Source: Candidatus Bathyarchaeota archaeon (GTDB taxonomy: Archaea; Thermoproteota; Bathyarchaeia; 40CM-2-53-6; CALIRQ01). Taken from it: a stretch of DNA of 36,989 nucleotides. Positions within the stretch are counted from its first letter, which is position 1, and each line of letters starts with the position of its first letter. The stretch spans positions 1-36,989 of the forward strand of contig JAPWUR010000003.1 in NCBI GenBank assembly GCA_028275385.1. Reading direction: 5' to 3'. A model generated the notes under the pieces. It saw nothing but the letters and a program-made list of their open reading frames with translations, was not told where the DNA came from and did no database searches. Positions 19,616 to 34,967 of the stretch are shown piece by piece. The translations under genes were made by a program, and so were the position numbers.

Positions 19616-19640
19616 CCCCTTGCCGTTTTCGCGAGATATG

Positions 19641-19681
19641 TTTATAAATGTGAATATCGTGGGCAAAATCCCACAATATTC
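19641..19681. promoter_or_regulatory. Palindromic TATA box (TTTATAAA, 19641-19648) and adjacent inverted repeat GAATATCGTGGG-N6-CCCACAATATTC (19652-19681); candidate operator
   Basis: The arms match at 11 of 12 positions. The element lies in the 86-nt gap between the divergent AbrB-ACT gene and hisZ. Confidence 0.6.
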
Positions 19682-19701
19682 CCACGAAGGTCGGGCATTC
19701 G

Positions 19702-20955
19702 ATGCTCAGGACCCCCCTCGGGACCAGGGATTACGCCCTCGAGGAGGCGGAGGCCTATAGCCGCCTGGAGCGCGCGCTGGAGCGGACCTTCGAGCTTTGG
19801 GGCTATAGGGAGGTGCGAACCCCCTGCCTCGAGTCGCTCGAGGTGTTCTCGGGGACCATAGGCCCAGGCGCCGTGGATAGGGCGTTCAAGTTCCAGGATT
19901 ACGACGGGAGGCTCTTGGCTTTGAGGGCCGAGGGTACCGCCCCAACGGCGAGGCTCTTCGCCTCAACCCTAATAAACGCCCCCCGCCCCTGCAGGCTGTT
20001 CTATATCGCGAAGGTCTTCAGGTTCGCGACCGATTTCCCGGGGGACTTCAGGGAATTTTCCCAAGCCGGCGCGGAGCTGATAGGATCGGGGGAGCCATCC
20101 TCGGACGCGGAGGTCATGGCGCTCTCGATAGCCGCCCTGGAGGACCTGGGGCTCGGGGGAAGGGGCCTCAGGATCGATTTGGGGCACGCGAACCTGATGA
20201 GGGAGCTAATCTCCCGCCTCCTGGGCGGCCCGGATGGGGAGCGCGCCCTCGATCTGCTCAGGAGGAGGGATCTTAGGGGGGCGCTGAGCTTATTCAAGGG
20301 GAGGGGTTTGCCCCCCGAGGCCTACGATTCCATAGCGGGGCTCCTGAGATGCCGGAGGGCGGATGAGTTTTTGGCAATGGATATTCCCATCGCGGACGCG
20401 GGGATTCGCGAAATGCTGAAGGGCTTCGCTGGCGTAATAGAGGAGGCGGAGGAGTACGGCATAGGCGATAAGCTCTTCCTGGATTTCTCGCTCATAAGGG
20501 ATTTGGAATATTACACCGGGGCGATCTTCGAGATCTCGATGGAGGGGCTCGGGGTGCCGGTTGGCGGCGGGGGCAGATACGATGCCCTCATAGAGAAGTT
20601 CTGCGGGCTCAGGATCCCGGCCGTCGGCTTCGCCCTGAACCTGAATAGGCTCATGGAGGGCATGGGCGCGGGATCGCTCCGCGAGGATCGGCGCAAGAGG
20701 GTCATTATACGATCCAAGAATAGGCGCGAGGCAATCGAGATCGCGAGGGAGCTAAGGGGGAAGGGGATAATCGCGGTCGTTTCCCTTGAAAGGGATGATT
20801 CCCTCTCCAAGGGAGGTGAGCTCGAGGGGTTCGATTACCTAATCGTCCCGAGCGGGGATGGATCGCTGAGGATCGCGGATCTGAGGAGCGGGGCCGTCAA
20901 GGCATCGAGCTTGGAGGGGCTCTTGGCCGAGCTGGGGGGAGGGGGCTTTGAATAG
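19702..20955 (+). CDS. hisZ: ATP phosphoribosyltransferase regulatory subunit (HisRS-like)
   Basis: GTRD, LRAEGT, REFSQAGAE, YYTG and GGGRYD motifs. The HisRS ERPQxGR loop is degenerate and the gene precedes a short HisG. Confidence 0.85.
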   Translation: MLRTPLGTRDYALEEAEAYSRLERALERTFELWGYREVRTPCLESLEVFSGTIGPGAVDRAFKFQDYDGRLLALRAEGTAPTARLFASTLINAPRPCRLFYIAKVFRFATDFPGDFREFSQAGAELIGSGEPSSDAEVMALSIAALEDLGLGGRGLRIDLGHANLMRELISRLLGGPDGERALDLLRRRDLRGALSLFKGRGLPPEAYDSIAGLLRCRRADEFLAMDIPIADAGIREMLKGFAGVIEEAEEYGIGDKLFLDFSLIRDLEYYTGAIFEISMEGLGVPVGGGGRYDALIEKFCGLRIPAVGFALNLNRLMEGMGAGSLREDRRKRVIIRSKNRREAIEIARELRGKGIIAVVSLERDDSLSKGGELEGFDYLIVPSGDGSLRIADLRSGAVKASSLEGLLAELGGGGFE

Positions 20956-21595
20956 GAGGATGAGGTTGGCGATGCCGAGCAAGGGCAGGTTGCACGGCCC
21001 ATCGCTGGATCTCCTTCGCAGGGCCGGCATCGAGTTGCTCTCCGAGGGCAGATCGTATCTTTCGGAAACCTCGGATCCATCCCTCGAGGTGATCCTCGTG
21101 AGGGCCAAGGACGTGCCCCTGTACCTCCACTACGGCGCTGCCGATTTGGGCATAACGGGATACGACCTCATAGTGGAGAGGGGCGCCGATCTATACGAGC
21201 TGCTGAGCCTTCCATATGGCGAATGCAAGCTCGTGGTGGCCGCGCCTGAGGATTCCGATATACGATCCATCGAGGACGTCGAGCCGGGGAGCGTCGTCGC
21301 CACATCGCACCCTAGGATCGCGAGCAAATTCTTCGAGGGAATGAACAAGGACGTCGAGGTTTTGGAGCTCGAGGGCTCGGTGGAGCTCGCGCCGAGGCTC
21401 GGCCTCGCGGATCTGATAGTGGATATATCATCGAGCGGGGAGACCCTGAGGAGGAACGGTTTGAGGGCCATCTGCACCATTTTGGAATCGACGGCCAAGC
21501 TGGCTTGCAACAAGGTATCCTATAGGGCGTTCGAGGATCGCGTAGAGGGCCTAGTTAGGAGGATCGAGGGAGCCCTGGGGGAATGGGCGCCATGA
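20948..21595 (+). CDS. hisG: ATP phosphoribosyltransferase, short form
   Basis: AMPSKGRL, DLGITGYD, GSVELAP and IVDISSSGETL motifs; no C-terminal regulatory domain. Start is 20948 or 20960. Confidence 0.95.
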   Translation: MNRRMRLAMPSKGRLHGPSLDLLRRAGIELLSEGRSYLSETSDPSLEVILVRAKDVPLYLHYGAADLGITGYDLIVERGADLYELLSLPYGECKLVVAAPEDSDIRSIEDVEPGSVVATSHPRIASKFFEGMNKDVEVLELEGSVELAPRLGLADLIVDISSSGETLRRNGLRAICTILESTAKLACNKVSYRAFEDRVEGLVRRIEGALGEWAP

Positions 21596-22881
21596 GGGTG
21601 CTGCGCGGGAGGGGGGAGGGGGAGGCGTTCCTTAATAAGCTAAGGGATAGGAGGGGCGAGGAGTTCGAGAGGGCATCGAGGGTCGTCGAGAGGATAATAA
21701 GGGACGTCAGGAAGTTCGGGGATCGCGCGCTGAGGAAATATACCAAGAAGTACGACGGCGTCGCCATAGGAGGATTGAGGGTAAGCCCCGAGGAGCTGGA
21801 GCTTTCGATGAGGGGCTTGGGGGAGGATGGGATCCGGGCCCTGAGGATGGCTAAAGGGAATTTGGAGCGATTCCATGCGGCCCAGCTGAGAGGGGGTTTC
21901 TCGATCGAGATCGCGGAGGGCGCGGAGATCGGGCAGCTCCCCAGGCCCCTTGGCCGCGTCGGGGGATACGTCCCCGGCGGGAGGCGCCCATATCCATCCT
22001 CGCTGATGATGTGCGCGATCCCGGCTTTGGTGGCCGGCGTTAAGGAGGTCGCCATTTGTACGCCGCCAGGCGAGGAGGGGCGCGTTCACGGGGCCGTCCT
22101 GGCCGCGGCGGGGATATGCGGCGTCGGGGAGGTCTATAGGGTGGGCGGCGCCCAAGCGATAGCGGCCATGGCCTATGGGACGGAGAGCATCGAGAGGGTC
22201 GATAAGATAGTGGGCCCTGGGAACATTTACGTTACCATCGCGAAGCTCCTCGTAAGGGACGACGTAGCCGTGGATCTCCCGGCCGGGCCGAGCGAGATCG
22301 TCATAATAGCGGATTCATCGGCGAACCCGAGGTTCGTGGCCGCCGATCTATTGGCCCAAGCCGAGCACGGCCCGACCTCCCTGGCCATCGTGCTCACGGA
22401 TTCGAGGGACCTGGCGGAGGCCGTTGGGGAGGAGGTCGAAGGGGAATTGGCCTCTGCGGATCGCGTTGTCGCGGACGCCATAAAGGGGAATGGCGCCATA
22501 GTGATATTGGATGATATCGGGGAATGCGTTGGGCTCGCGAACGCCATAGCCCCGGAGCATTTGGAGATAATGGTCAGGAGGCCCGAGGCGCTTTTGGATT
22601 CGATCGAGAGCGCCGGCGCCGTATTCTTGGGCGAATATTCTCCGGTGGCCCTCGGGGATTATTCGGCGGGCCTCAACCACGTGTTGCCGACGCGCGGTTT
22701 CGCCAAATATTACTCGGGGCTTTCGAGCTGGGACTTCGTCAGGTGGTTGAACTACTTGAAGTGCTCCAGGGAGGGCTTCGAGAGGCTGTGCGGGGCGGCG
22801 ATCGAGCTGGCCGAGATCGAGGGCTTCGGGCATCATTCAAGGTCCCTCAGGGTCAGGCTGGGAAGGGGGAGGGCGGGATGA
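21583..22881 (+). CDS. hisD: Histidinol dehydrogenase
   Basis: YVPGG, GGAQAIAA, GPGNIYV, AGPSE, QAEH, APEHL and GDYSAGLNHVLPT motifs. Confidence 0.96.
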   Translation: MGAMRVLRGRGEGEAFLNKLRDRRGEEFERASRVVERIIRDVRKFGDRALRKYTKKYDGVAIGGLRVSPEELELSMRGLGEDGIRALRMAKGNLERFHAAQLRGGFSIEIAEGAEIGQLPRPLGRVGGYVPGGRRPYPSSLMMCAIPALVAGVKEVAICTPPGEEGRVHGAVLAAAGICGVGEVYRVGGAQAIAAMAYGTESIERVDKIVGPGNIYVTIAKLLVRDDVAVDLPAGPSEIVIIADSSANPRFVAADLLAQAEHGPTSLAIVLTDSRDLAEAVGEEVEGELASADRVVADAIKGNGAIVILDDIGECVGLANAIAPEHLEIMVRRPEALLDSIESAGAVFLGEYSPVALGDYSAGLNHVLPTRGFAKYYSGLSSWDFVRWLNYLKCSREGFERLCGAAIELAEIEGFGHHSRSLRVRLGRGRAG

Positions 22882-24056
22882 GGGAATTGGCTGGGATCGC
22901 TCTGCCGTATATTGCGGAGGGCTTCGACCCCTCCAACATACGAAGGATCGCCGTCGATTTCGACGGCGTCATATCGAGCGCGAGCAAACCCTTCTACGAG
23001 GCGATCTCCCAAGCCGTCGATCGATATTATAACGCCATATTGGGCCTCGAGGGCCAAGGGGGGCTCGTGAGCCATGGGGATATATCGGCCATGAAGGGCA
23101 CGGGGCTCTTCAACAACGATTGGGACCTGACGCGCATCCTCATAGCCTACTACCTCGCCCTGGCCTATAGGGAGCTGGAGGGGAGGGGGGCAGCCGAGGG
23201 ATTCCTCCTCAGGCTCGGTAGGGGCTCGCCGGGGGATCCGATCGGCTGGCTCAAGGGCCTTGGGGGATATATGCGCTCCGAGGGCATAGATTTGGGGGGC
23301 TTGGCCGAGGCCAAGAGGGAGTTCCCGATAGGGGCCCTCGCCTCCAAGCTCGGGGCCGGGGGGCTCGGCGGGGAGGGTGCCATAGATGGGGTCGTAGGGT
23401 TCGTAATGCCGAGGGGGGGAGGGGAATTGGCGCGCGCGTTGAGGCGCCTCGTCGGATTCGATGCGGAGGGGATCGATCTCGTAAGGGAGCTGTTCGAGGA
23501 GATATATTTGGGCCCAAGCCTCTACCGGAGGTTCTACGGCAGGGAGCCCCCGATCGGCTTGGGAGGGGGGCGTGAAGGGCTGATGGCATTGGAGCGCCCC
23601 CTCCCAAGCAAGGAGGCCCTGAGGAGGCTCTCCGATGCCTTCGGGAGGTTGGGCATATATTCCGAGCGCCCCAGGGCGCAGGCCGAATACTTGCTGGAGA
23701 ATTGGGGGCTCTCGGACGCGTTCGACCTCTCGAGCTCCGCCTTCGTGGAGGATATCGCGAATTGCGCCTCCTTGGCGGGCGCCCCCCGCTCGGCCATGGG
23801 GAAGCCCAATCCGCGGCCCTTCCTGAAATTCCTGGAATCATTCAGCGGGGACCTCGATGCCATATACGTCGGGGATTCCCCATCCGATCTCCACCTGGTT
23901 TCGAACGCGAGAGCGATGGGGCGCGAGGGCATATCGTTCGCGGGGGTCCTGAGCGACTGCGAGGATCCGGGGGGTACTGCCCGCGCCTTCCGGAGGGGAG
24001 GGGCCTCGGCCATAATGTGGGATCTGAACCAATTGCCGGAGGTGCTGGGCGTTTGA
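22878..24056 (+). CDS. HAD-superfamily hydrolase with a large cap; candidate histidinol-phosphate phosphatase
   Basis: Motif I VDFDGV, motif II IYSERP, motif III GKPNP, motif IV YVGDSPSD. ATGA overlap with hisD and TTGA overlap with hisB. Confidence 0.8.
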   Translation: MRELAGIALPYIAEGFDPSNIRRIAVDFDGVISSASKPFYEAISQAVDRYYNAILGLEGQGGLVSHGDISAMKGTGLFNNDWDLTRILIAYYLALAYRELEGRGAAEGFLLRLGRGSPGDPIGWLKGLGGYMRSEGIDLGGLAEAKREFPIGALASKLGAGGLGGEGAIDGVVGFVMPRGGGELARALRRLVGFDAEGIDLVRELFEEIYLGPSLYRRFYGREPPIGLGGGREGLMALERPLPSKEALRRLSDAFGRLGIYSERPRAQAEYLLENWGLSDAFDLSSSAFVEDIANCASLAGAPRSAMGKPNPRPFLKFLESFSGDLDAIYVGDSPSDLHLVSNARAMGREGISFAGVLSDCEDPGGTARAFRRGGASAIMWDLNQLPEVLGV

Positions 24057-24643
24057 GCGGGGAAAGGGCCCGCAGGGCCAAGATAGAAAGGAGGACCTTG
24101 GAAGTGAGCATAAGCGGGGATCTCGATATAGACGGCTCCGGGAGGGCCAAGGTTTCTACGGGCATACCCTTCTTCGATCACATGCTCAGCACCCTAGCCA
24201 AGCACGCCCTCTTCGATTTGGAGCTGACCGCCAAGGGGGACTTGGAGCACCATTTGATAGAGGAGGTGGGCATAGCCCTGGGGTCGGCGATAGACGCCGC
24301 CCTCGGGGATAGGAGGGGGATAAGGAGGTTCGGCTCCGCCCTGATCCCGATGGATGAATCGCTCGCGAGCGCAGCGGTCGATCTGAGCGGAAGGGGCTTC
24401 GCGCGATTGAGCTTGGGGCTCCGCGATTCTGTGGAGGGCTTCAGGGCGGAGTGGCTCGAGCATTTCCTAAGATCCCTCGCGATGTCCTCGCGGGCGACGA
24501 TCCACGTGAACCTGGTCTATGGGAGCGATGAGCATCACAAAGCCGAGTCCTCCATCAAGGCCCTCGCCAGAGCCCTGAGGGATGCCGTTAGCATGGATTG
24601 GAGGATCCCGGGGGAGATCCCGAGCGTGAAGGGGGGATTATGA
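24053..24643 (+). CDS. hisB: Imidazoleglycerol-phosphate dehydratase
   Basis: TGIPFFDHML, GDLEHHLIEE, PMDES, DLSGR and HHKAES motifs; TTG 24053. Confidence 0.95.
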   Translation: MSGERARRAKIERRTLEVSISGDLDIDGSGRAKVSTGIPFFDHMLSTLAKHALFDLELTAKGDLEHHLIEEVGIALGSAIDAALGDRRGIRRFGSALIPMDESLASAAVDLSGRGFARLSLGLRDSVEGFRAEWLEHFLRSLAMSSRATIHVNLVYGSDEHHKAESSIKALARALRDAVSMDWRIPGEIPSVKGGL

Positions 24644-25252
24644 ATGCCGACGATACTCGTGGCGAACTACGGCGTTGGCAACCTCAGGAGCCTGAGGAGG
24701 GGATTGGAGCGGGCCGGGGCGCGCGCCGCCATAGGATTGGGGCCCGAGGAGCTCGAGGCCGCGGATGGCATCGTCCTGCCAGGGGTCGGGGCCTTCCGGG
24801 CCGCGATGGAGGGGCTGGGCGCCATAAGGGAGGCGCTCATGGAGCAAGTGGAGGCGGGGAAGCCGCTCCTCGGGATCTGCCTCGGGATGCAACTCCTCCT
24901 ATCCAAGAGCTACGAGAACGGCGTTTGGGATGGGCTCGGCCTAGTGAGGGGGGAGGCCACGAAGCTGCCGGGATCCGTGAAATTGCCCCACATGGGATGG
25001 GACGAGGTCATCATAACCAGGGATTCGGAGATAGCGGAGGGCATCCCGAGCGGGGCCCTCATGTATTTCGCGCATTCCTATGCCCCGGAGCTATCGGATG
25101 GTTCGGTGGAGGTCGCCCATACCGATTACGGGAGGAAGTTCGCTTCCATAATAGAGCGCGGGAACATATTCGGAACGCAATTCCATCCGGAGAAGAGCGG
25201 GGGGCCCGGGATAGGGCTCCTGAGGAACTTCGTATCCATCGTGAAAAGGTGA
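24644..25252 (+). CDS. hisH: Imidazole glycerol phosphate synthase, glutaminase subunit
   Basis: YGVGNL, LPGVGAF, GICLGMQ, PHMGW and QFHPEKS motifs. Confidence 0.96.
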   Translation: MPTILVANYGVGNLRSLRRGLERAGARAAIGLGPEELEAADGIVLPGVGAFRAAMEGLGAIREALMEQVEAGKPLLGICLGMQLLLSKSYENGVWDGLGLVRGEATKLPGSVKLPHMGWDEVIITRDSEIAEGIPSGALMYFAHSYAPELSDGSVEVAHTDYGRKFASIIERGNIFGTQFHPEKSGGPGIGLLRNFVSIVKR

Positions 25253-25259
25253 TGGCGGG

Positions 25260-25976
25260 TTGTACATCATACCGGCGGTGGATATAATGGGGGGCAAATG
25301 CGTTAGGCTCCTGCGCGGAGCCCCGGATGCGAGGATCGAGTATTACGAGGATCCAGTCGAGGCCGCTAAGCTTTGGGAAGCCATGGGGGCGGAATGGATC
25401 CACGTCGTGGACTTGGATAGGGCCATGGGGACCGGGGATAACCGCGATGTGGTATACGCCATACTCCGGGAGGTCGATTCCAAGGTCCAAGTCGGAGGGG
25501 GGATAAGGAGCCTGGAGGAGGCGGGCGAGATGCTAGATAGGGGGGCCTCCAGGGTGGTGGTTGGGACGAGGGCCATCAGGGATCCGGATTTCCTGCCGAG
25601 CCTGGCGAGGGCCTTTGGGAGCGAGAGGATCGCGGTTGCGATCGATGTGAAGGGAGGGGGGATCGCCATCGAGGGCTGGAGGAAGGTCGCGGGGTTGGAT
25701 CCCTTGGCTTTCGCGAGCAGCCTCAGGGGCGCTGGATTCCTCGTGCTAACGCTCGCGGATCACGATGGAACCCTCAGGACGCCCGCCTTGGGGATCGTTG
25801 AGGAGGTCAAGAGGGTCGCCCCGATGCCCCTGATAGTCGGGGGCGGGGTGAGCGATCTCGAGGGCCTGAGGGCCTTGGCGAGGATGGGGGTTTGGGGGGT
25901 GATAATCGGGAGGGCCCTTTACGAGGGCGTATTGGATTTCAAAGCCGCGGTGGAGGCGATCGCCGATGTTGGCTAA
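25260..25976 (+). CDS. hisA: ProFAR isomerase
   Basis: IIPAVDI, HVVDLD, QVGGGIR, DGT and IIGRALY motifs. Confidence 0.95.
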
Positions 25977-26736
25977 GAGGATAATACCGTGCTTGGATGT
26001 CAAGGACGGGAAGGTCGTGAAGGGCGTGAAATTCGAGAACCTGAGGGTCGAGGGCGACCCGGTCGAGCTCGCCTCGTATTATGAGGAATCGATGGCCGAC
26101 GAGCTGGTATTCCTCGATATAACGGCATCGAAGGAGAAGAGAAAGATATTGATCGATGTCGTAGAAAAGGTCGCCGATGTGCTGACGATACCCTTCACGG
26201 TCGGAGGGGGGATAGGCGACCTTGGGATGATACAGGAGCTTTTGTGCGCCGGGGCCGATAAGGTATCGTTGAATACCGCAGCCGTGAGGGACCCGGAGCT
26301 CATCAGGGTGGCATCGGATCGATTCGGGAGCCAATGCATAGTTATAGCCATAGATGCGAAAAGGGCCTGGGGGGCCCCGGGGCGCCCCCGATGGGAGGTC
26401 TATATCGAGGGCGGATCCAAGGGGACCGGCCTTGACGCGATCGAATGGGCCAAGAGGGCCGAGGGCCTCGGGGCGGGGGAGATACTCCTCACTAGCATGG
26501 ATAAGGATGGAACCCAAGAGGGCTACGATATAGAGCTGACCCGGGCGATTTGCGAAGCGGTGAACTTGCCCGTCATAGCGAGCGGCGGGGCCGGGGCGCC
26601 GGAGCACATCCTAGAGGTCTTCGAAAGGGGGCTGGCGGATGCCGCTTTGGCGGCTTCGATCTTCCATAGGAATATACATCCGATAATGGAGGTCAAGAGG
26701 TTCTTGGCATCGAGGGGGATCCCGGTGAGGATGTGA
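25966..26736 (+). CDS. hisF: Imidazole glycerol phosphate synthase, cyclase subunit
   Basis: [36 protein letters not shown] and IASGGAG motifs. Confidence 0.97.
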
Positions 26737-26737
26737 A

Positions 26738-27397
26738 ATGGGCGGCGGGAAGGGCGGGATCGAGGACTTGATCGAAAGAGTGGATTTCGAGAAGATGGGC
26801 GGATTGGTGCCAGTCGTGGTGCAGGACTTCGATACCGGGGAGGTCCTCATGCAGGCCTTCATGAACAAGGAGGCCCTCAAGTTGACCCTAGAGACGGGAT
26901 TGATGCATTATTGGAGCAGGACCAGGGGGAGGATATGGATGAAGGGCGAGGAGAGCGGGCATACGCAATCCGTGATTAGCGCGAGATTGGATTGTGATGG
27001 CGATGCGATATTATTCGCGGTGAGGCAAAAGGGCGTTTGTTGCCACACAGGCGAGGGCAGCTGCTTCCATAGGCCCCTCCTTGATGGCCCAGCGGGCGTG
27101 GGCGCGAAGATCCTCGGGGAAGTATTCCAAGTCATAAAGGGGAGGATCGAGGCGCCGCGGCCCGGCTCCTACGTATCCGGCTTGGCCTCAAAGGGGGAGA
27201 ACGCGATATTGAAGAAGCTCGGGGAGGAGGCGGCCGAGTTGGTGATAGCGGCCAAAGAGGGCGAGGGGATTATTCACGAGGCCGCGGATCTCCTATTCCA
27301 CTTGATGGTCCTCCTGGCCTTCAAGGGGGTGGGGCTGGAGGGCGTTTACGCCGAGCTTGAGAGGAGGCGAAGGGGGCGAAGGGCCGAGGGCCCTTGA
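26738..27397 (+). CDS. hisIE: Bifunctional phosphoribosyl-AMP cyclohydrolase / phosphoribosyl-ATP pyrophosphatase
   Basis: WMKGEESG, DCDGD and CHTGEGSCF, followed by KLGEEAAE and EAADLLFH. Confidence 0.95.
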   Translation: MGGGKGGIEDLIERVDFEKMGGLVPVVVQDFDTGEVLMQAFMNKEALKLTLETGLMHYWSRTRGRIWMKGEESGHTQSVISARLDCDGDAILFAVRQKGVCCHTGEGSCFHRPLLDGPAGVGAKILGEVFQVIKGRIEAPRPGSYVSGLASKGENAILKKLGEEAAELVIAAKEGEGIIHEAADLLFHLMVLLAFKGVGLEGVYAELERRRRGRRAEGP

Positions 27398-27493
27398 CCT
27401 GCCCCGCTCGGGTTGGGTCGATCCCCCATCCAACGGTATCCCTGTTCCACTTGGAAACTTTATAATCCCGCCCGGGAATATTTTGCCATCGCA

Positions 27494-27877
27494 ATGGAAG
27501 CGAAGGGCGCGGCGAGCGCGTTGGGCGATGAGGACGCCGTGATCGGCTTGCTCAAGAAGATAAACGAGAACCTGGAGGAACTCAATAGGAAGCTTGATGC
27601 CATGATAAAGATGCAGGAATCGTCGAAGCCCATCGCCAAGGCCATAACATCGGGGGAGATGCCCCTGGATGTGGATACGCTCCTATCCCTGCCGGATCAT
27701 CTGAGGAAGACGGCCTTGGCCATATGCGCCCTGGGCGAGGCGACCGCCACGCAGGTGGCCGCCGAAACCTCCAGGGCCAGGGCGGCCGAGAGCGATTACC
27801 TAAACCAGCTCGTCTCGCTCGGCCTCCTGAAGAAGAAGAGGAAGGGCAGGGATGTTTACTTCTACATCGAGAGGTGA
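27494..27877 (+). CDS. N-terminal coiled coil + winged-helix (ArsR-like) DNA-binding protein
   Basis: LLKKINENLEELNRKLDAM heptads; LPDHLRKTA..GEATATQVAAETSRARAAESDYLNQLVSLGLLKKKRKGRDVYF. TATA box TTTATAA at 27459-27465. Confidence 0.85.
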   Translation: MEAKGAASALGDEDAVIGLLKKINENLEELNRKLDAMIKMQESSKPIAKAITSGEMPLDVDTLLSLPDHLRKTALAICALGEATATQVAAETSRARAAESDYLNQLVSLGLLKKKRKGRDVYFYIER

Positions 27878-28642
27878 ATGGCCACGAAGGCCATATCGTT
27901 CCACTCCTACAAGGGCGGGACCGGGAAGACCTCGATAGCGGCCAACTTGGCGGCCATATACGCCCGCCTCGGGCACAGGGTCTGCCTCCTCGATTACGAT
28001 TTCAGGGCCCCGAGCCTGAGCGTCCTCTTCAAGCCCAATCCCAAGTTTTGGTTGAACGATTACCTGAACGGCCGATGCGAGGTGGAGGAGGCGCTCGTGG
28101 ACGTGGGGAAGGGGCTGGGCCTCGAGGGGGCGATCTTCGCCGGATTCGCCGATCCGAGCACGAGGGCCATAAGGGATATGATGACCAAGGATAGGGCTTG
28201 GGAGATGGGAGCCCTCCACAGGACCCTCTCGGCCAAGAGGGCCATACAAAGATCCCTCGGGGCGGATTATTTGATATTCGATACGAGCCCGGGCATACAT
28301 TATTCATCCGTCAACGCCCTGGCCAGCTCGGACGCCATAGCCCTCGTCATGAAGGGCGACGATTTCGACATGGAGGGGACCAAGGAGATGGTGCGCGGCA
28401 TATACGACGTGCTTGGGAGGAAGGCCGGGATAATCATGAATAAGATACCGATGGGCTTTGTCGAGGGAGGGGGGATCGTCAAGGGGGTCGAGGAGGAGCT
28501 CAATATACCGGTGCTGGGGGTGATCCCTTGCTATTGCGAGTTGATGGCCATCGGGGGCCGGTCGATTTACGCGCTCGATCGCCCAGATCACCCGTTCTCC
28601 AAGGCCCTCGAGGACCTATCCAAGAGGATCGCCGGGATGTGA
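27878..28642 (+). CDS. MinD/ParA-family ATPase
   Basis: Deviant Walker A SYKGGTGKT, LLDYDFRAPSL, YLIFDTSPG and IIMNK; starts immediately after the wHTH stop codon. Confidence 0.92.
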   Translation: MATKAISFHSYKGGTGKTSIAANLAAIYARLGHRVCLLDYDFRAPSLSVLFKPNPKFWLNDYLNGRCEVEEALVDVGKGLGLEGAIFAGFADPSTRAIRDMMTKDRAWEMGALHRTLSAKRAIQRSLGADYLIFDTSPGIHYSSVNALASSDAIALVMKGDDFDMEGTKEMVRGIYDVLGRKAGIIMNKIPMGFVEGGGIVKGVEEELNIPVLGVIPCYCELMAIGGRSIYALDRPDHPFSKALEDLSKRIAGM

Positions 28643-28656
28643 GGCCCGGGGGGCCC

Positions 28657-29595
28657 TCAACCCCTGCGGAGCCTCCTCTCGTATTCCTCCCTCAATCTGC
28701 GATATTCCGACTCGGTTATCCTCCCCAGGGCCTTGAGCTCCTCCAGCCTCGCTATCGCCCTGGCGGCCGCCAGATATTCCTCATCGGGCCCGCCGGCCTT
28801 CGCCCTCCTCCTAAGGGCGGCGTAGGCCCCCAATATGGCCAAGGCGATCGCGAGCGCCGCCGAGGCCAAGCCGAGGGGCCGCCACCAAGCCTCCCTCACA
28901 ACCAAGCCCAGCGCGAGCGATCTAATGGATCCGCCGCCGGATGCTATCACCGTTATATTATATCGCCCAATGGGCGCATCCGGGGAGCAAGTGATTTCGA
29001 GCAGGATCGAGCAAGGGGGCTGGGCCGGGTTCCTGTCGAACCTATAGGAGGCGCCATTGGGCAATCCCCGGAGGCTCAGATCCACCAGGGAGTCGAAGCC
29101 GTGAAGCGGCTCTATGGAGATCGCGACCCCGGAGGACCCGCCTTGCTGGACCTCCAGGACGGACGGATGCGCGGAGAGCCTAAAGTCGGGCTTGAAGATC
29201 CCGAACGTGAGCTCGGCCCTCGCCTCCCCGAACCCGATCTTCTCCGCCAATAGGTACACCGTGTAATTTCCCGACGCGTAGTCGCCCCTTAGCGCGAACT
29301 CATCCTCGTAGCCCCCATCGGCCCCGGTGAAGAGCAGCGCTATGTGGACCGTGTTGCCCCTCGGGTCCTTCACCTGGAGGGAAACGGCGGCGTTCGGAAC
29401 GGCCATCCCCAGCGGGGTGATGACCTTCCCCCTTATCCTGATTATCTGAAGGCCCGAGCGCAGCTCGGTCTCCGCCGATATTGACGCCTGTATCCCCTGG
29501 GCCGAGGCCAGCTCGATGATTGGGCACAGGGCCAATAGGGCGATCAGGGTTAAGGCCATAGCTCCCCGCAAGCACTGGGCACCATCCCGGCCCAT
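28657..29595 (-). CDS. Membrane-anchored surface protein: signal peptide, two Ig-like modules, TM helix and SHOCT-like cytoplasmic tail
   Basis: NAAVSLQVKDPRG..YTVYLLAEKIGF and DFRLSAHPSVLEV modules; TM helix; LEELKALGRITESEYRRLR. Confidence 0.8.
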   Translation of the reverse strand: MGRDGAQCLRGAMALTLIALLALCPIIELASAQGIQASISAETELRSGLQIIRIRGKVITPLGMAVPNAAVSLQVKDPRGNTVHIALLFTGADGGYEDEFALRGDYASGNYTVYLLAEKIGFGEARAELTFGIFKPDFRLSAHPSVLEVQQGGSSGVAISIEPLHGFDSLVDLSLRGLPNGASYRFDRNPAQPPCSILLEITCSPDAPIGRYNITVIASGGGSIRSLALGLVVREAWWRPLGLASAALAIALAILGAYAALRRRAKAGGPDEEYLAAARAIARLEELKALGRITESEYRRLREEYERRLRRG

Positions 29596-30067: not shown

Positions 30068-31618
30068 TCATCCGAAGAGCTCGTCGAGCCTCTCCTTGGG
30101 CGGCTTGGGCGTGACCAAGCTAACGAGGAAGTATAGGGCGCCGCATCCAATGAAAGTCGCCAATTGCCAATAGCCCCATCCCCAGGCGTTGATGGTATAG
30201 ACGTAATAGCCCCCGAGGGCGCACATGGCCATCCCGTATAATATGCAAGCCATCGCGCCGTACTTCGTAGCCCCCCTCCAATAGAAGGAGACCGCCACCA
30301 CGAAGAAGAATATGCTGCCCAATCCAACGGCGGCCCCGGACATCAAATAGGCCAGCAACGGGGGCGGGCGCACGATGGCCCAATAGAGCGGTATGAGGGC
30401 GAAGATCGGTATTAGGATCCTCGTAATCGCCAGCAAGGTCTTCTTGGATAGGTTGGGCATGTAAAGGCCCAGGATGTCCCTGGTCACATTGCCGGACATC
30501 ACCATAACCATGGCCGCCAAGGTCGATAGGGAGGCCGCGAACACGGCCACCAGGTAAATCGTCGAGAGCGGGACGCCCCCGATGACCATCGCCAGCAATG
30601 GGGCCGCCGCGTCCCTCCCCAATCCCGTTGGCATCCCGGGGATCCCGGCCAACTTGGGCCCGAAATAGGCCCTGGCCGCGAGCCCCACTATCAAGTTGGC
30701 CCACGGCACGGAGCCGCCTATGGCTATGACGGCCATCATTATGGCGAAATCCCTCTTCGTGAACTTCCTTATCCCCAGGAACCTGGCGACGTTGTGGGGG
30801 AAGCCTATGGCCATCGTGAAGAACATTATGGCCGTCGCCAGGACCCCTATCCAATCCGCCGCGAATTGGGCGGCCGGCACGCCGGATAGCTTGGGGTTCA
30901 CGAGCCCCACGAGCTCCGGGGCCTGGGCCGCCAATTTGGCGTTCAAGGCCTCTGGGCCGCCGATGAAGGCCAAGGAGGCTATGCCCAGGGCGAAGCAACC
31001 TATTGTCAGCAAAATGCCCTGGAGGGCCAAGGTCCATTGGGTCCCCGTATATCCCCCGAAGGCCAAGTAGATGAAGGCCACCGAAGCGCTCAGGAGCATG
31101 CAGATTTCCCAGCGATAGCCCGTTATGGCGTACCAAGCGGTGGCGCCAGCCGTGTATTGGCCAACGGAGTATACCATCAAGAGGATTATCATGGACGCGG
31201 CCGCCATGGCCTGCGTGAGCTTGCTATCGAACCTTATGCCTATGACGTCGGGCACTGTCGCGGCCCCGAACTTGGCCGAATAGGCCCTCATCTTGGGCCC
31301 GGTTATGAGCGCCGCGGGCGCAAGGCCGAGGAGCGTCCAAACGCCGGCCAGCCACATGCCGGGCCAGCCGAACCAATAGGTTATGCCCATCAGCCCTAGG
31401 CATGCCCAACCGCTCATCCAAGTGGCGCAGAGGGCCAAGCCCGTTATTATGGGGCCGATATCCCTCCCGCCGACCAGGAAGAGCTCGAAGCTAGAGGAGC
31501 GCTTCTTGGCGGCGAAGCCCAGGAATATGCAGATGATCAGGAAGCCGGCTAGGGCGAGCGCCCCAATGAGGAGGTACTCGGGCGTGGGCTTTGGCGGATC
31601 CGGCCAATCGGTCGTCAT
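30068..31618 (-). CDS. Sodium:solute symporter (SSS/PutP-PanF family)
   Basis: FLVGGRDIG, ATWMSGW..LG, TVPD.IG.RF, YLAFGG, GFPHNVARF, AASLST, RDI and WRGATKYGA motifs; about 13 TM helices. Confidence 0.92.
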   Translation of the reverse strand: MTTDWPDPPKPTPEYLLIGALALAGFLIICIFLGFAAKKRSSSFELFLVGGRDIGPIITGLALCATWMSGWACLGLMGITYWFGWPGMWLAGVWTLLGLAPAALITGPKMRAYSAKFGAATVPDVIGIRFDSKLTQAMAAASMIILLMVYSVGQYTAGATAWYAITGYRWEICMLLSASVAFIYLAFGGYTGTQWTLALQGILLTIGCFALGIASLAFIGGPEALNAKLAAQAPELVGLVNPKLSGVPAAQFAADWIGVLATAIMFFTMAIGFPHNVARFLGIRKFTKRDFAIMMAVIAIGGSVPWANLIVGLAARAYFGPKLAGIPGMPTGLGRDAAAPLLAMVIGGVPLSTIYLVAVFAASLSTLAAMVMVMSGNVTRDILGLYMPNLSKKTLLAITRILIPIFALIPLYWAIVRPPPLLAYLMSGAAVGLGSIFFFVVAVSFYWRGATKYGAMACILYGMAMCALGGYYVYTINAWGWGYWQLATFIGCGALYFLVSLVTPKPPKERLDELFG

Positions 31619-31622
31619 GGCT

Positions 31623-31727
31623 TCATTCCCCCCAATACCTCAACCTTAGCCAAGTCCCTATCAAGACCAATAGCAAGCTGCCTATCATGACCGCCATGAG
31701 GGCGGTCCAAGCGCTCGGCTCAGCCAT
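31623..31727 (-). CDS. 34-aa single-TM small accessory protein of the SSS transporter (MAEPSAWTALMAVMIGSLLLVLIGTWLRLRYWGE)
   Basis: Not in the ORF track. SD GGGGGTG (31736-31742) lies 8 nt before the ATG; the stop is 4 nt before the symporter ATG; one hydrophobic helix. Confidence 0.8.
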   Translation of the reverse strand: MAEPSAWTALMAVMIGSLLLVLIGTWLRLRYWGE

Positions 31728-31938
31728 GCTTACGGCACCCCCAAACTGGCCCGAGCAAGGGCCGAGCCGAAGATCCGATATGGTTTTCAAGCCATTCCAA
31801 AAGCCACACCTCCGCCGCGAACGCGGGGCGGGCTCAGCGGAAGAAGAAGAACGCCGAGCCGAACGAGGCTATGCCCCTGATCCCCGCGTCCCGGTTCAAT
31901 TCGAATCGCCCAGAGGGGGCGGGCCATCGATATATAAA
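31714..31938 (-). promoter_or_regulatory. Promoter plus structured 5' leader (candidate attenuator) of the SSS transporter operon
   Basis: TATA box; complementary segments 31852-31860/31831-31839 and 31760-31771/31714-31725; GC hairpin followed by TTTT at 31799-31834. Confidence 0.6.
31834..31899 (-). CDS. Putative Phe-rich leader peptide MNRDAGIRGIASFGSAFFFFR (uORF)
   Basis: TTG start about 32 nt after TTTATATA (31931-31938); five TTC codons, four in tandem (31840-31851); embedded in alternative helices. Confidence 0.62.
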   Translation of the reverse strand: MNRDAGIRGIASFGSAFFFFR

Positions 31939-32062
31939 ATTTACCAAAGCTGCCGATACGCAGCCCGCCGGTCGCGATATCCAACGCGCCCGATCGGCGG
32001 GGGTTTGCCCAATTCGGCGGATCCTCGGCCCCCCTTTCGAAAACGGCTCGGCTGGAATGGGA

Positions 32063-33343
32063 TCAATTGGGCCCGATCGGGGAGGGGAGCGTCGATCCGG
32101 CGTAGGGCATGAGGATTATCGAGGCATCTCTTCCATGCGAATCGAGGGCCCTTTTCAGGGCCTCGTCCACGGTCTCCGCCGGCTCCATCAGGCCCTTCCC
32201 GCTCAGGTCCCCCTCCAAGACCCCCCTCAGCTCCGGGCCCGAAACGACCAGGATCCTCGCGCGCTTGGCGAGCCTAGCTATCGCGAATGCCTTATGGCCG
32301 CCCAGGGCGAATCCGGCCTTCAGCCTCTCGATGATGTCGTCCGGGCACGAGGCCTCCATCATCCATTCCTCGAAGACCTCATCGCCCAGCCCCTCCGGGC
32401 ATTCCGCCAAGAGGATTATCGTGCCCCCGTCCCTGACGGCATACGATGCGTTATCGAGGGCCTTCTGGGCTTGGTAGAGGTTTATGTCCTTCGGGAATCC
32501 CCCGGCCGAGGCTATCACTATGTCGGCCCTCCGCTCTATCGGCACCTTATACATCAGGTCGTTGGTCCTGATCGCCGCCCTGTGGGCTTCGACGAAGTCT
32601 CCGGCCACCGCTTGGACGATGCCCTTGCCCTCGTTTAGGACCACGTTGACTATGTAATCCATGCCCGCCATCCGGGCGCCCTCCTCGATATCCTCCCTAA
32701 CGGGGTTCCCATCCACGACGCCCGGCTCGGCCCGGTGGAGGGTCATCATGGAGTGGTTCTGCCGTATGGTTTCGAAGGATGAGACGCCCGGCAGCAGGGA
32801 TTTGGCCCCCCCGCTGTAGCCCGCGAAATAATGTATGTCTATATTGGCTATGCCTATGATGAAGTCGTGATCGAGGACCTCCTTGTTCACCGAGACCTCC
32901 GTCCCGCGCCTGGTCCTCCCAACGTATTCCAAATTCGCCTCATCCTTGGAGTCGTGGTTCACGGCCCTTATCCTGCCCAGGATCGCCGGGCCGACCAGCT
33001 TGTTCATATCCTCGATCGTTTGGGCCCTATGCATGCCATTGGCGAAGAATATCGTCATATCGCCGTCCTCGATCCCGGCCATCCTCAGCTCATCGATGAC
33101 GTGGGGCAGGACCTTATGGCTCGGGCAAGGCCTGGTGATGTCGCTGACCAAAAGGGCCACCTTCATGCCCCTCCCGACGAGGTCCCTCAGCCTTTTATGG
33201 CCCAAGGGGTTCTCGAGCGCCCCCCTCACCTCCTCGACCTCGCGATCTGCCGGGAGGTCATTTGGCTTGAGGGTGGAGATCAAGTTCCCCTCCGGTATCT
33301 CGACCTCCAGCGCCCCCTTCCCGTATTTGAGGCGAACCCTCAT
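32063..33343 (-). CDS. larA: Nickel-pincer-dependent lactate racemase family (LarA) alpha-hydroxyacid racemase/epimerase
   Basis: SDITRP, ANGMHR, NHDS, HYFAGYSGGAKSLLPG and GGFPKDINLYQAQK motifs. ATG 33343 is the likely start (not 34579). Confidence 0.9.
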   Translation of the reverse strand: MRVRLKYGKGALEVEIPEGNLISTLKPNDLPADREVEEVRGALENPLGHKRLRDLVGRGMKVALLVSDITRPCPSHKVLPHVIDELRMAGIEDGDMTIFFANGMHRAQTIEDMNKLVGPAILGRIRAVNHDSKDEANLEYVGRTRRGTEVSVNKEVLDHDFIIGIANIDIHYFAGYSGGAKSLLPGVSSFETIRQNHSMMTLHRAEPGVVDGNPVREDIEEGARMAGMDYIVNVVLNEGKGIVQAVAGDFVEAHRAAIRTNDLMYKVPIERRADIVIASAGGFPKDINLYQAQKALDNASYAVRDGGTIILLAECPEGLGDEVFEEWMMEASCPDDIIERLKAGFALGGHKAFAIARLAKRARILVVSGPELRGVLEGDLSGKGLMEPAETVDEALKRALDSHGRDASIILMPYAGSTLPSPIGPN

Positions 33344-33385
33344 TCGATTGGCCCCCGCTCCATTGCGCGAATACCGGATTCGAGA

Positions 33386-33423
33386 ATAAAAAGGAGGGGG
33401 TTCCGGGGCTTGCTGGATCCCCC
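33386..33423 (-). terminator. Imperfect hairpin followed by a T-tract downstream of the DASS transporter
   Basis: GGGGATCCAG-N6-CCGGAACCCC followed by TCCTTTTTA. The T-run could instead be the larA TATA box. Confidence 0.3.
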
Positions 33424-34830
33424 TTAGTAGAGGCCGAGGAACTTCCAATACGGGAATCCCAGGACGAACCATACGGCTATATGGATTATGGAGATCAGGA
33501 GGCCGTAGGCCCACCATTCCTTTATGTCGACGTAGCCCGCTCCAAAGTATATCGGCGCCGGCCCGGTTCCGTAGTGCGTCATGGCGGCGTTCAGGTTGGA
33601 CATATAGCCCAGCATCAAGCCGACCAACAACGGTGGCGCGCCCGCCGTGGCCATGACGGCCGCGAAGGGCGGGAAGAACGCCGTTACATGCGCAGTCATG
33701 CTGGCCATGAAGTAGTGGGCATAGAAGTACACCAAGGTGAGCACTATGAATGCCGTGAGCCAAGCCCAGCCGGAGACATATTTCGCGGTCGATTCCGCCA
33801 TCCATTTCATGAAGCCCAGCTTGTTGAGCCCGGCGGCCATTCCCACTAGGCCACCGAACCACACCAGGGCATCCCAGGCGCCCCTCTCGCCGAGCACGTC
33901 CTGCCAGCTCAAAACCCCGGTTACGAGCATTAGGGCCACGCCCAGCAGGGCGGTGGTGGTGGCGTTTATCTTCACTGTCTCGCTCAGGATCCACAGCGCC
34001 AAGGCCAGGATGAATACGAAGATCAATACCTTCTCCTCCCTCTTCAGCGGGCCCATCTCCTTCAGGCTCTTCTCGGCCAGCTTGGGGGCCTCGGGGCTCT
34101 CCTTGATCTCCGGCCTGGTCAGGAAGTATACGATGAGGGGCACCAAGAAGAAGGCAACGAAGCCGGGCACGATGGCCCCGAGGAACCACATGGCCCAGCT
34201 GATCTCCACCTTCAGGACCTGCTTGGCGAGCGATACGACCAGCGGATTGGCCGCCATCCCGGTCATGAACATGGCGCCCGTCACCAGGGTCGTCTGATAT
34301 TCGTTGAACATCAGGAAGTTCCCGATCCTCTTGGCCGTGGGGCCGGGCTCGGAATCGTAGGCCTTGGCTATGCTCCTGATTATCGGGAAGAGGATGCCGC
34401 CCGCCCTGGCGGTATTGCTTGGGGTCCCTGGTGCTATGACCAAGTCGGTCAGCGAGAGGGCGTAGCCGAGCGTCAAGGTCCTCTTGCCGATGGCCTTTAT
34501 GAACATCCACGCTATTCTCTCCCCGAGCCTCGTCTTGAGGAAGGCCCTCGCGAAGAGATATGCCGATACTATGAGCCATACCGTTGTATCGGCGAACCCA
34601 GCGAGCGCGTCCCCGATCGTAAGGGCCCCGGATAGAGCGGAGGCGACCACGCCTATCAACACAACGGCGCTCATGGGCAATGGCCTAAATATCAAGCCGG
34701 CTATCACGGCCACGAAGATCGCGAAGAGCAGCCATGCCTTGAAAGCCACGCCGGATGGCGCTGGTATGGCGTAGAGGATTAAGAAGACGATTATTGGTAT
34801 TATCGCCGATGCTACCCTCTTTGCGTCCAT
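33424..34830 (-). CDS. DASS-family di/tricarboxylate transporter (CitT/TtdT/2-oxoglutarate-malate translocator type)
   Basis: PSNTARAGGI, MFMTGMAANP, WDALVWFG, HYFMASMTAH and THYGTGPAPIYFGAGY motifs. ATG 34830 preferred. Confidence 0.93.
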   Translation of the reverse strand: MDAKRVASAIIPIIVFLILYAIPAPSGVAFKAWLLFAIFVAVIAGLIFRPLPMSAVVLIGVVASALSGALTIGDALAGFADTTVWLIVSAYLFARAFLKTRLGERIAWMFIKAIGKRTLTLGYALSLTDLVIAPGTPSNTARAGGILFPIIRSIAKAYDSEPGPTAKRIGNFLMFNEYQTTLVTGAMFMTGMAANPLVVSLAKQVLKVEISWAMWFLGAIVPGFVAFFLVPLIVYFLTRPEIKESPEAPKLAEKSLKEMGPLKREEKVLIFVFILALALWILSETVKINATTTALLGVALMLVTGVLSWQDVLGERGAWDALVWFGGLVGMAAGLNKLGFMKWMAESTAKYVSGWAWLTAFIVLTLVYFYAHYFMASMTAHVTAFFPPFAAVMATAGAPPLLVGLMLGYMSNLNAAMTHYGTGPAPIYFGAGYVDIKEWWAYGLLISIIHIAVWFVLGFPYWKFLGLY

Positions 34831-34967
34831 ATTCGATCGCCTACCATTTCCTTCCAACATAATGCGTTGGCGAATAAAAGGATTTTGAGTTGTATCTCAG
34901 TAATTCAAAATTACATTGGTGGGGGTTTCGCTTCGCGAAGCGCCCGCCGATCCGGGATGGGCCAAGC

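Follow-up and report, generated by a model that had tools for sequence, protein, structure and literature searches.

A candidate phenylalanine-responsive leader ahead of a sodium:solute symporter operon in a Bathyarchaeota archaeon

We analyzed a stretch of 36,989 nucleotides (nt) from a Candidatus Bathyarchaeota archaeon (assembly GCA_028275385.1, contig JAPWUR010000003.1; the window) and describe here its minus-strand region from about position 31,938 downward. This region reads as the promoter and leader of a two-part Na+/solute symporter operon, and we hold, with slightly more confidence than doubt, that it is a phenylalanine (Phe)-responsive sensing element. A short upstream open reading frame (uORF1) near its 5' end closes on a run of Phe codons, and a second leader of this kind precedes a gene for a PaaK-like coenzyme A (CoA) ligase elsewhere in the genome. 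The leader is probably a Phe-responsive, ribosome-mediated one, and as a pair the two appear to be the first candidates for leader peptides that sense an amino acid in Archaea. Attenuation by leader peptides is known from bacterial textbooks and depends on the coupling of transcription to translation. The initial annotation of this DNA, made from the sequence alone, called such attenuators essentially uncharacterized in archaea, and full-text literature searches, which listed bacterial attenuators and Ribo-seq studies of archaeal small ORFs, gave no archaeal leader-peptide attenuator among the papers listed, which is not proof of absence. The wider claim that Archaea use ribosome-mediated leader peptides to sense amino acids, with a two-leader "Phe ribulon" for aryl-acid salvage and a relay of two uORFs, is put forward tentatively, at a little under an even chance. 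The pair of Phe leaders on a transporter/CoA-ligase unit offers a concrete, mutable test of archaeal ribosomes as amino-acid sensors. It also suggests aryl-acid salvage to phenylalanine as a role for the widespread, unassigned archaeal cluster of sodium:solute symporter (SSS) permease, small subunit, and PaaK.

Architecture of the transporter leader

The initial annotation had proposed a Phe-sensing attenuator in an archaeon. The host is indeed archaeal, every element that it listed lies where it was placed on the minus strand (Table 1), and its transporter operon encodes a 34-amino-acid (aa) transmembrane (TM) protein and a permease with a Pfam SSF match. We compared four metagenome-assembled genomes (MAGs) of the genus, namely this one (G000, the reference for pairwise identities) and G001, G002, and G003; "all four genomes" below means these. 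The Phe-rich short ORF near the 5' end of the long, conserved leader was found in frame in all four species.

The transcription start site (TSS) likely lies within the CGATT region, as placed from the usual distance between TATA box and TSS in archaea. This would give uORF1, which has no Shine-Dalgarno (SD) sequence, a 5' untranslated region (UTR) of about 8 nt, and the leader from predicted TSS to operon a length of roughly 180 nt. The C-terminal end of uORF1 is FFF(F)-R-stop, and Phe accounts for 5 of the 20 sense codons after the start, compared with a genome frequency of 3.2% (P = 3.6e-4). The earlier list of elements was incomplete in that it overlooked a second uORF (uORF2), which follows a perfect SD (SD2; the 16S rRNA 3' end is ...GGATCACCTCCT) and whose start, frame, and stop are kept in all four genomes with zero indels. 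The peptide of uORF2 is not conserved. Its frame passes across segment 3 and the small-ORF SD before terminating inside segment 4. The C-rich box between the two uORFs is complementary not only to the 5' strand of helix P0 but also to SD2 and to the small-ORF SD. Segments 1/2 and 3/4 are near-palindromic in the DNA, with 8 of 9 and 10 of 12 positions complementary.

Rfam gave no match for the whole window at gathering score, and for 31650-31960 at E up to 10 it gave only chance-level matches to RAGATH-31 (E = 2.4) and c-di-GMP-I-GGC (E = 9.6). A T-box riboswitch was rejected because no T-box covariance model matched at E up to 10. A scan of 31500-32200 for bacterial-type promoters and terminators returned 0 and 0, and a tRNA search of the window found none.

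Table 1. Features of the transporter leader, its operon, and the sister leader ORF (all window features read on the minus strand; minimum free energy, MFE)
Feature	Sequence	Position	Strand	Remarks
TATA box	TTTATATA (context AAATTTTATATA)	31931-31938	-	kept in all four genomes
CGATT		31904-31908	-	likely initiator/TSS region; about 30 nt past first T of TATA box; invariant in all four genomes, flanks vary
uORF1	MNRDAGIRGIASFGSAFFFFR	31834-31899	-	TTG 31899-31897; 21 codons; TGA 31836-31834; five TTC
P0, 5' strand	GACGCGGGG	31882-31890	-	within uORF1 codons 4-6; pairs with 31828-31820
Segment 1	GGCUCGGCG	31860-31852	-	5' strand of hairpin 1:2 (H1)
Segment 2	CGCUGAGCC	31839-31831	-	3' strand of H1; includes TGA stop
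Hairpin H1		31831-31860	-	loop of four tandem TTC; in MFE fold and RNAalifold consensus
C-rich box	CCCGCCCCGCGUU (CCCACCCCGCGCU in relatives)	31820-31832	-	P0 3' strand
SD2	GGAGGTG	31807-31813	-	perfect complement of 16S 3' end; invariant in all four genomes
uORF2		31720-31800	-	TTG 6 nt past SD2; 26 codons; TGA overlaps small-ORF ATG in ATGGCTGA
Segment 3	UUCGGCUCGGCC	31771-31760	-	5' strand of 3:4
Segment 4	GGCUGAGCCGAG	31725-31714	-	begins at G of small-ORF ATG
3:4 domain		31714-31771	-	inner stem-loop with SD GGGGGTG (31742-31736) and ATG (31727-31725)
Small subunit, 34 aa, single TM	MAEPSAWTALMAVMIGSLLLVLIGTWLRLRYWGE	31623-31727	-	ATG 31727-31725; hydrophobic
SSS permease, 516 aa		30068-31618	-	Pfam SSF, E = 1.2e-37; 4 nt past small ORF
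PaaK leader ORF (G000)	MCKGARFGFEFAFEPAGFFFF-stop	contig C17		GAGGAG SD 6 nt before ATG, after TTTTATATA core

Sister leader upstream of a PaaK-like gene

A scan for amino-acid-run uORFs, which had been suggested with the initial annotation, brought up a Phe sister leader, while short ORFs with runs of other amino acids in crude intergenic regions gave nothing comparable. We searched the genome (1.16 Mb, 61% GC) for ORFs with a start and at least three in-frame Phe codons within 6 codons of the stop. Three places were found: the SSS leader, a leader on contig C17, and one antisense case inside a 1184-aa ORF. The third is an antisense artifact, so that no intergenic cases other than the two leaders exist in the genome. 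About 105 nt past the stop of the C17 leader ORF stands GGAGGAGGTG, followed by the TTG of a 448-aa protein whose best NCBIfam match is TIGR02155 PaaK (E = 1e-123, 413 bits). TTG starts seem common here, since TTG was the first start after TATA-like boxes in 25 of 70 cases of a crude genome scan.

The PaaK leader ORF is kept in all four genomes (MCKGARFGFEFAFEPAGFFFF, MFKGARFGFEFAFGPAGFFF, MSKGARFGFEFAFGPAGFFF, and MSKGRCLRFEFAFGPASFFF). It has 20 to 21 codons, 6 to 8 of them Phe, and an FFF(F)-stop end, and the Phe enrichment over the genome frequency reaches P = 6.5e-8 (G001). Phe also occurs outside the run, at F7, F9, F11, and F13 in the PaaK leader and at F7 and F12/13 in the SSS leader, where one or two such codons add to the three or four in tandem. 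Synonymous TTC/TTT changes were found at codon 13 of the PaaK leader and, in the SSS leader, at codon 7 and in the G002 run. As in the SSS leader, the run sits between complementary flanks in the loop of a hairpin. The TATA boxes of the SSS leader, the PaaK leader, and a third leader ahead of a paralogous SSS2-PaaK2 pair have the TTTTATATA core in common.

The strongest conserved structure of the PaaK leader is a 14-bp hairpin directly after the stop, with a C-rich, anti-SD-like 5' strand. A GCCCCAYCUCGC box, resembling the C-rich box of the SSS leader, lies just past the stop. Read directly, one box position and its SD partner are C/G, U/G, U/G, and U/A in the four genomes, which is compatible with a box:SD pairing, although the changes are single-step ones. 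The PaaK leader lacks a counterpart of 3:4, and a Pfam scan of its peptide gave no match. Local alignment of the two leaders scored 46 in G001, compared with 21.7 +/- 3.4 for shuffles, with a shared core of about 60 nt. The pairs of G000 and G003 came out close to the highest shuffle score (38 versus 37 and 32 versus 35, respectively), and that of G002 was not above shuffles (27 against 21.8 +/- 3.4).

A class-wide search for FFFF followed by a stop in 301 genomes gave forward counts about equal to those of a reversed-pattern control, and none of the 30 loci fetched was leader-like except that of G000 itself. Two FFFF-stop loci that were checked further proved to be T-rich tracts at gene ends, not leaders.

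The third leader was seen at L009:1090-1500 (G003) and on the reverse strand of L012 (G002). Its ATG lies 29 nt past the first T of the box, a leaderless geometry, and opens a conserved ORF of 29 to 30 codons (MRGGWAMRREFRGD.VYT...HSGSAHR(N)S) with aromatic residues six codons apart (W5, F11, and Y17). GCCC... comes after its TGA, which it has in common with the SSS and PaaK leaders, and the genes downstream are a small TM ORF and paralogues of SSS and PaaK.

Link to uptake and activation of aryl acids

Among 29 fetched distant SSS loci, 11 have a PaaK homologue directly downstream of the SSS homologue on the same strand, and the same order occurs in three paralogue loci of the genus. Because of this adjacency in the distant loci, the two leaders are taken to mark one functional unit. 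The genus thus has the two halves of a conserved small subunit-SSS-PaaK unit at separate loci, each with a Phe-run leader. Together, the sister leader and the SSS-PaaK adjacency considerably strengthen the idea of Phe sensing. Phenylacetate permeases belong to the SSS family, and the substrates of the present permease and PaaK-like ligase may be aryl acids. The two leaders would together form a Phe-responsive regulon for the uptake and activation of an aryl acid, for example phenylacetate, and indolepyruvate oxidoreductase (IOR) could convert the aryl-acid compound towards Phe. The alpha subunit of IOR scored above its cut-off in the genome. In M. maripaludis, aryl acids are described as feeding aromatic amino-acid synthesis via IOR (Porat et al., as cited in PMC4162585).

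As a side observation, in related families the search matches of the PaaK homologues at L077 and L078 (G046 and G004) and at L082 and L085 (G055 and G045) extend through one or two in-frame stops (TGA, TGA plus TAA, or TAG), which may reflect split genes, errors, or recoding.

Conservation within the genus

All four genomes keep the TATA box, CGATT, the TTG start, three or four tandem TTC codons, the Arg-stop end, and the 9-bp H1. Both the TTC run and its frame, on whose conservation the initial annotation had staked its proposal, are thus conserved in the genus. From Phe13 to the stop and through H1 the sequence is identical apart from one TTC unit; among the genus genomes uORF1 also has one 3-nt indel between its start and the run. 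The whole leader is 74-77% identical between G000 and the others and 89-93% among the others. At four-fold degenerate positions in the SSS gene, the corresponding identities amount to 53-62% and 75-79%. The leader is conserved above four-fold sites and is therefore under selection. Conservation, not folding energy, sets it beyond chance. In an alignment of orthologous leaders, as proposed with the initial annotation, the Phe codons are kept in all four genomes, and compensatory change is minimal, with 1 double change in 40 pairs.

The SSS orthologues of the three other genomes are 91-93% identical at the protein level. A DNA search of 61 relatives recovered the leader in the four genus genomes only, plus one 21-nt chance match. 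A metagenome scan gave two loci, each 100% identical to the SSS query protein, and a scan of assembled contigs for further leaders gave two MAGs, both already in the genus set. Contigs of four DNA runs over 31560-32080 were short, near-identical pieces with no change in uORF1 or H1; they showed four changes in 31615-31826, one of which, the strain variant A31730G (RNA strand) in the 3:4 domain, keeps a U-A pair as U-G.

RNA folding and ribosome-constrained models

The MFE fold of the G000 leader includes 1:2 and 3:4 together with the CUUGC/GUAAG and GGGCC/GGUGCC extensions, as had been described. The leader is not beyond chance by folding energy alone: with a z score of -1.37, it is equaled or surpassed by 16 of 200 shuffles. 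H1 by itself has -15.9 kcal/mol at 37 C and -7.6 kcal/mol at 70 C, and its stem is invariant in all four genomes. The RNAalifold consensus of the four leaders keeps H1 and the enclosing P0 (uORF1 codons 4-6 with the post-stop CCCCGCG). P0 pairing is 100% in all four genomes, with one GC/AU double change and two one-sided changes.

The helix 3:4, said to bury the SD and AUG of the small ORF, fared less evenly. Local folds place a 3:4-type hairpin over the start codon in all four genomes (-34.2, -28.7, -21.9, and -24.6 kcal/mol), but the RNAalifold consensus does not choose it. The 3:4 domain of the relatives has one or two internal mismatches, and the register of its inner stem shifts to CAUG.../...CAUG. 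The central A-U of 3:4, and likewise that of 2:3, is an A/C mismatch in three of the four genomes, and G003 has lost a second pair in both helices. The 2:3 duplex has -16.2, -11.4, -7.5, and -9.5 kcal/mol compared with -23.7, -18.9, -12.7, and -16.2 kcal/mol for 3:4, so that it is weaker by 5-7.5 kcal/mol in every genome. At 70 C it has only -3.8 to -8.6 kcal/mol.

Ribosome stalling was modeled by equilibrium folding with a 28-nt footprint held unpaired at each Phe codon. The distance to segment 2 is 9-12 nt from the first nucleotide of the run and 0 nt from its last, so that pausing there would place the ribosome over a large part of segment 2 instead of exposing it. A stall placed at Phe12/13 would cover segment 1 and leave segment 2 exposed, whereas placement in the run would not. 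In the Phe12/13 models the C-rich box, once released, forms pairs with the region of SD2, whose accessibility is 0.14 in all four genomes at 37 C, compared with 0.22-0.48 in the free RNA ending at column 130 and 0.19-0.35 in the free RNA at full length. At 70 C the value under this stall is 0.16-0.21. The drop was seen in three model variants, and when the RNA behind the ribosome was also held open, the same effect on SD2 appeared at the first codons of the run. P0 and H1 may thus compete with the box:SD2 pairing. Equilibrium models of GC-rich RNAs of about 215 nt carry little weight.

Proposed mechanism and comparison with known systems

We propose that uORF1 reads the supply of Phe-tRNA. A ribosome dwelling on its Phe codons would hold H1 and P0 open, and the C-rich box, freed in this way, would pair with SD2 of uORF2. 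Since uORF2 extends across the 3:4 hairpin as far as the start codon of the first transporter gene, its translation would melt 3:4 and either deliver ribosomes to the start of that gene or occlude it. The rate of uORF1 translation would in this manner set the fold of the leader and the number of ribosomes that reach the transporter genes, in the order uORF1 occupancy, P0/H1 versus box:SD2, uORF2, and finally 3:4 and the first gene. This relay is favored because the drop in SD2 accessibility at Phe12/13 is the one reproducible effect in the models. We lean to induction on Phe shortage, although the uORF2 relay could equally give the opposite; the sign depends on whether uORF2 couples to the small-ORF start or occludes it. 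A relay from uORF1 through an SD2-led uORF2 to termination-reinitiation is not described for bacterial attenuators.

The leader resembles the classical enterobacterial transcription attenuators pheL (of pheA) and pheM (of pheST) in having a short leader ORF with a Phe run, here ahead of genes with a putative tie to Phe supply, and in the proposed principle that the RNA folds according to how fast ribosomes pass the Phe codons. However, pheL and pheM act through a hairpin and U-tract intrinsic terminator, to which bacterial RNA polymerase responds, and regulate pheA and pheST in bacteria; here the genes are those of a transporter and a CoA ligase in an archaeon, and the region 31500-32200 has no terminator-like site. 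Archaeal termination differs from bacterial intrinsic termination. A T-box with a Phe UUC specifier would likewise present UUC in a hairpin loop of an amino-acid-related leader, but T-boxes are bacterial, and the present UUC triplets belong to the reading frame of a conserved ORF.

In ermC and cat, a leader ORF and a hairpin burying the next SD and start bring about translational attenuation, as summarized in 10.1101/834739. This arrangement and the four-segment complementarity are also present here. The signal in those systems is a drug acting with the nascent peptide, whereas here it would be an amino acid; their ribosome stalls in segment 1 with segment 2 outside it, whereas in the present leader segment 2 directly adjoins the run, and the 2:3 helix is a weak one that has decayed in three of the four genomes. 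Closer in kind are the poly-Cys leaderless short ORFs of mycobacteria (the "Cys ribulon"), a system shown by experiment, with translational control proposed to work through an RBS-sequestering structure and ribosome pausing (10.1101/834739). The likeness lies in the consecutive codons for one amino acid within a 5' short ORF and, as that account presents it, in several loci of a pathway each carrying a sensor. Set to the same test, a Phe ribulon would comprise two loci, the SSS operon and the PaaK-like gene, both of which carry the sensor in all four genomes. The Cys ribulon is bacterial and concerns Cys, whereas the present case concerns Phe and has longer leaders, with about 105-110 nt from sensor stop to gene start. 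The SSS leader also has an SD-led second uORF between sensor and gene.

Evidence against the Phe-responsive reading and alternative explanations

Several observations weigh against a Phe-responsive leader. The leader is confined to one genus of four MAGs. No Phe-run leader was found ahead of the 29 distant SSS homologues, nor ahead of 24 further PaaK homologues from the order, among them the orthologue in G007 with 61% identity; an FFF-containing ORF does lie 330-395 nt upstream in two of these 24 cases, but it is unrelated. A de novo route to Phe is present, with chorismate synthase and prephenate dehydratase, and the leader of the his operon in the window has no ORF with a run of His codons. 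The PaaK-like protein falls below the 646-bit equivalog cut-off with its 413 bits, and the SSS permease has no assigned substrate. uORF1 starts with TTG and lacks an SD, a 21-codon open frame is not unusual at 61% GC, and the TTC indel is a repeat-unit slip that is uninformative on frame. The TSS and the translation of the uORFs are predicted. Change in the N-terminal half of uORF1 has been close to neutral (45-58% identity when G000 is compared with the other genomes), and codon periodicity of substitutions is absent in uORF1 and uORF2. Because of this near-neutral 5' half and the missing periodicity, the uORF1 peptide as such is not the selected target. The covariation noted above is equaled in 117 of 500 shuffles. 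Finally, stalls in the run leave the accessibility of the small-ORF SD/AUG in G000 unchanged (0.58/0.34), with inconsistent results in the other genomes, and have no consistent effect on that of the PaaK SD.

The mechanism of the initial annotation was an ermC-like attenuator, in which a ribosome stalled on Phe codons covers segment 1, segment 2 captures segment 3, and the SD and AUG are freed on Phe shortage. We now regard this as quite unlikely. The four segments are present and complementary as described, 1:2 and 3:4 stand in the G000 MFE fold with 3:4 recurring in the local folds, and a stall at Phe12/13, 5' of segment 1, would have the required geometry. However, the switch between 1:2 + 3:4 and 2:3 does not hold across the genus, given the broken central pair in three of the four genomes and the consistently weaker 2:3, which did not form in any shown ribosome-constrained MFE fold. 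Phe stalls did not consistently open the SD/AUG in the constrained folds, and the freed segment 2, together with the box, paired locally with the SD2 region instead of capturing segment 3. With the run so close to segment 2, shielding of that segment is expected. An ermC-like scheme also ignores uORF2 and finds no 3:4 counterpart in the PaaK sister leader. A translation-independent, structured cis-acting RNA, namely a protein- or ligand-binding element common to both operons with the UUC run as a loop motif, is to us rather unlikely. Across the hairpin region even third positions of codons do not vary, an indication of constraint at the RNA level, and coding periodicity is lacking; the weak initiation context of uORF1, the core of about 60 nt common to the two G001 leaders, and the placement of the run in a hairpin loop in both leaders point the same way. 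On the other hand, the PaaK leader ORF has an ATG and an SD at canonical spacing, both ORFs have 19-21 codons and end 0-1 codon after the run, extra Phe codons occur outside it, and the TTC/TTT changes keep Phe. The absence of any Rfam match, T-box included, at E up to 10 and the shuffle-level alignments of the G002, G000, and G003 pairs also speak against a common RNA element.

It is very unlikely that the inverted and direct repeats are DNA operators for a transcription factor acting on both operons. The segments are near-palindromic in the DNA, TTCGGCTCGGC occurs three times in the genome with two of the copies here, and by eye the closest outgroup SSS loci carry a winged-helix-like regulator directly upstream. 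However, the repeats lie about 45-190 nt past the predicted TSS, far from the usual sites of archaeal repressors, and their mismatches are G-U pairs on the sense RNA strand only. Segment 4 is coding, and the PaaK leader does not have the same repeat. We give equally little credence to functional hydrophobic micro-proteins that are not sensors. Both leader peptides share a C-terminal motif (FG[SP]A.FFF), the PaaK peptide is well conserved in the genus, and SSS permeases of this kind normally go together with a small TM subunit. Against this, uORF1 lacks conservation in its N-terminal half, neither peptide has the length or the apolar N-terminus that a TM helix would require, the gene after one of them encodes a soluble CoA ligase, and no Pfam match was found. 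Since distant homologues have two-TM small subunits, we also considered whether uORF1 might be what is left of the first helix of such a subunit, and rejected this; the closest outgroup (54-56% identity) has a one-TM subunit, and the leader is stably conserved.

Transporter operon, neighboring genes, and host

The 34-aa small subunit had no Pfam match, and no NCBIfam subfamily matched the SSS permease at cut-off. In a sample of 400 other genomes from the phylum, 42 contain an SSS homologue (43-56% identity). Most of the 29 distant loci have a small TM ORF of 27-72 aa directly upstream, and two-TM forms of the small subunit have, by eye, a similar C-terminal ...L[RK].[RKS][YH]WE.. tail. In loci L039-L044, about 100-450 nt upstream of SSS, a winged-helix-like gene (...LSSLVR.LS.EL...ESTLKW.LRGLRD.GL...) was seen by eye to abut the small TM ORF. 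Judged from these sequences, the closest outgroup is suggested to use protein-based control where the genus has a uORF leader.

Outside the leader, TTCTTCTTCTTC occurs at one other site in the genome, a membrane-protein motif on C51 that is not a leader. At C51:4400-4800 (minus strand) of G000, an SSS paralogue is preceded by a two-TM small subunit containing PFFFFW.

The host is an uncultured, thermophilic member of the Bathyarchaeia. Sequencing runs listed as containing the stretch were DNA runs, mostly of hot-spring metagenomes, and no RNA run was among them. On contig C9 of G000 (27289-28944, plus strand; GC 63%), the 16S rRNA match is 1656 nt long compared with 1478 positions in the model and probably carries an insertion or intron. 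The genes upstream of the leader on the minus strand of the window are those for a DASS transporter and for a LarA homologue resembling malate racemase. The 838-aa ORF at 32063-34579 (minus strand) is an over-extension: only its C-terminal portion of about 420 aa matches LarA (NCBIfam LarAH6, 528 bits), and it overlaps the DASS transporter ORF at 33424-34860. Ahead of the his operon (19702-27397, plus strand), the region 19630-19705 includes a TTTATAAA box, and the 5' UTR, about 30 nt long, contains a GTGGG-CAAAAT-CCCAC hairpin and a repeated CCCAC.

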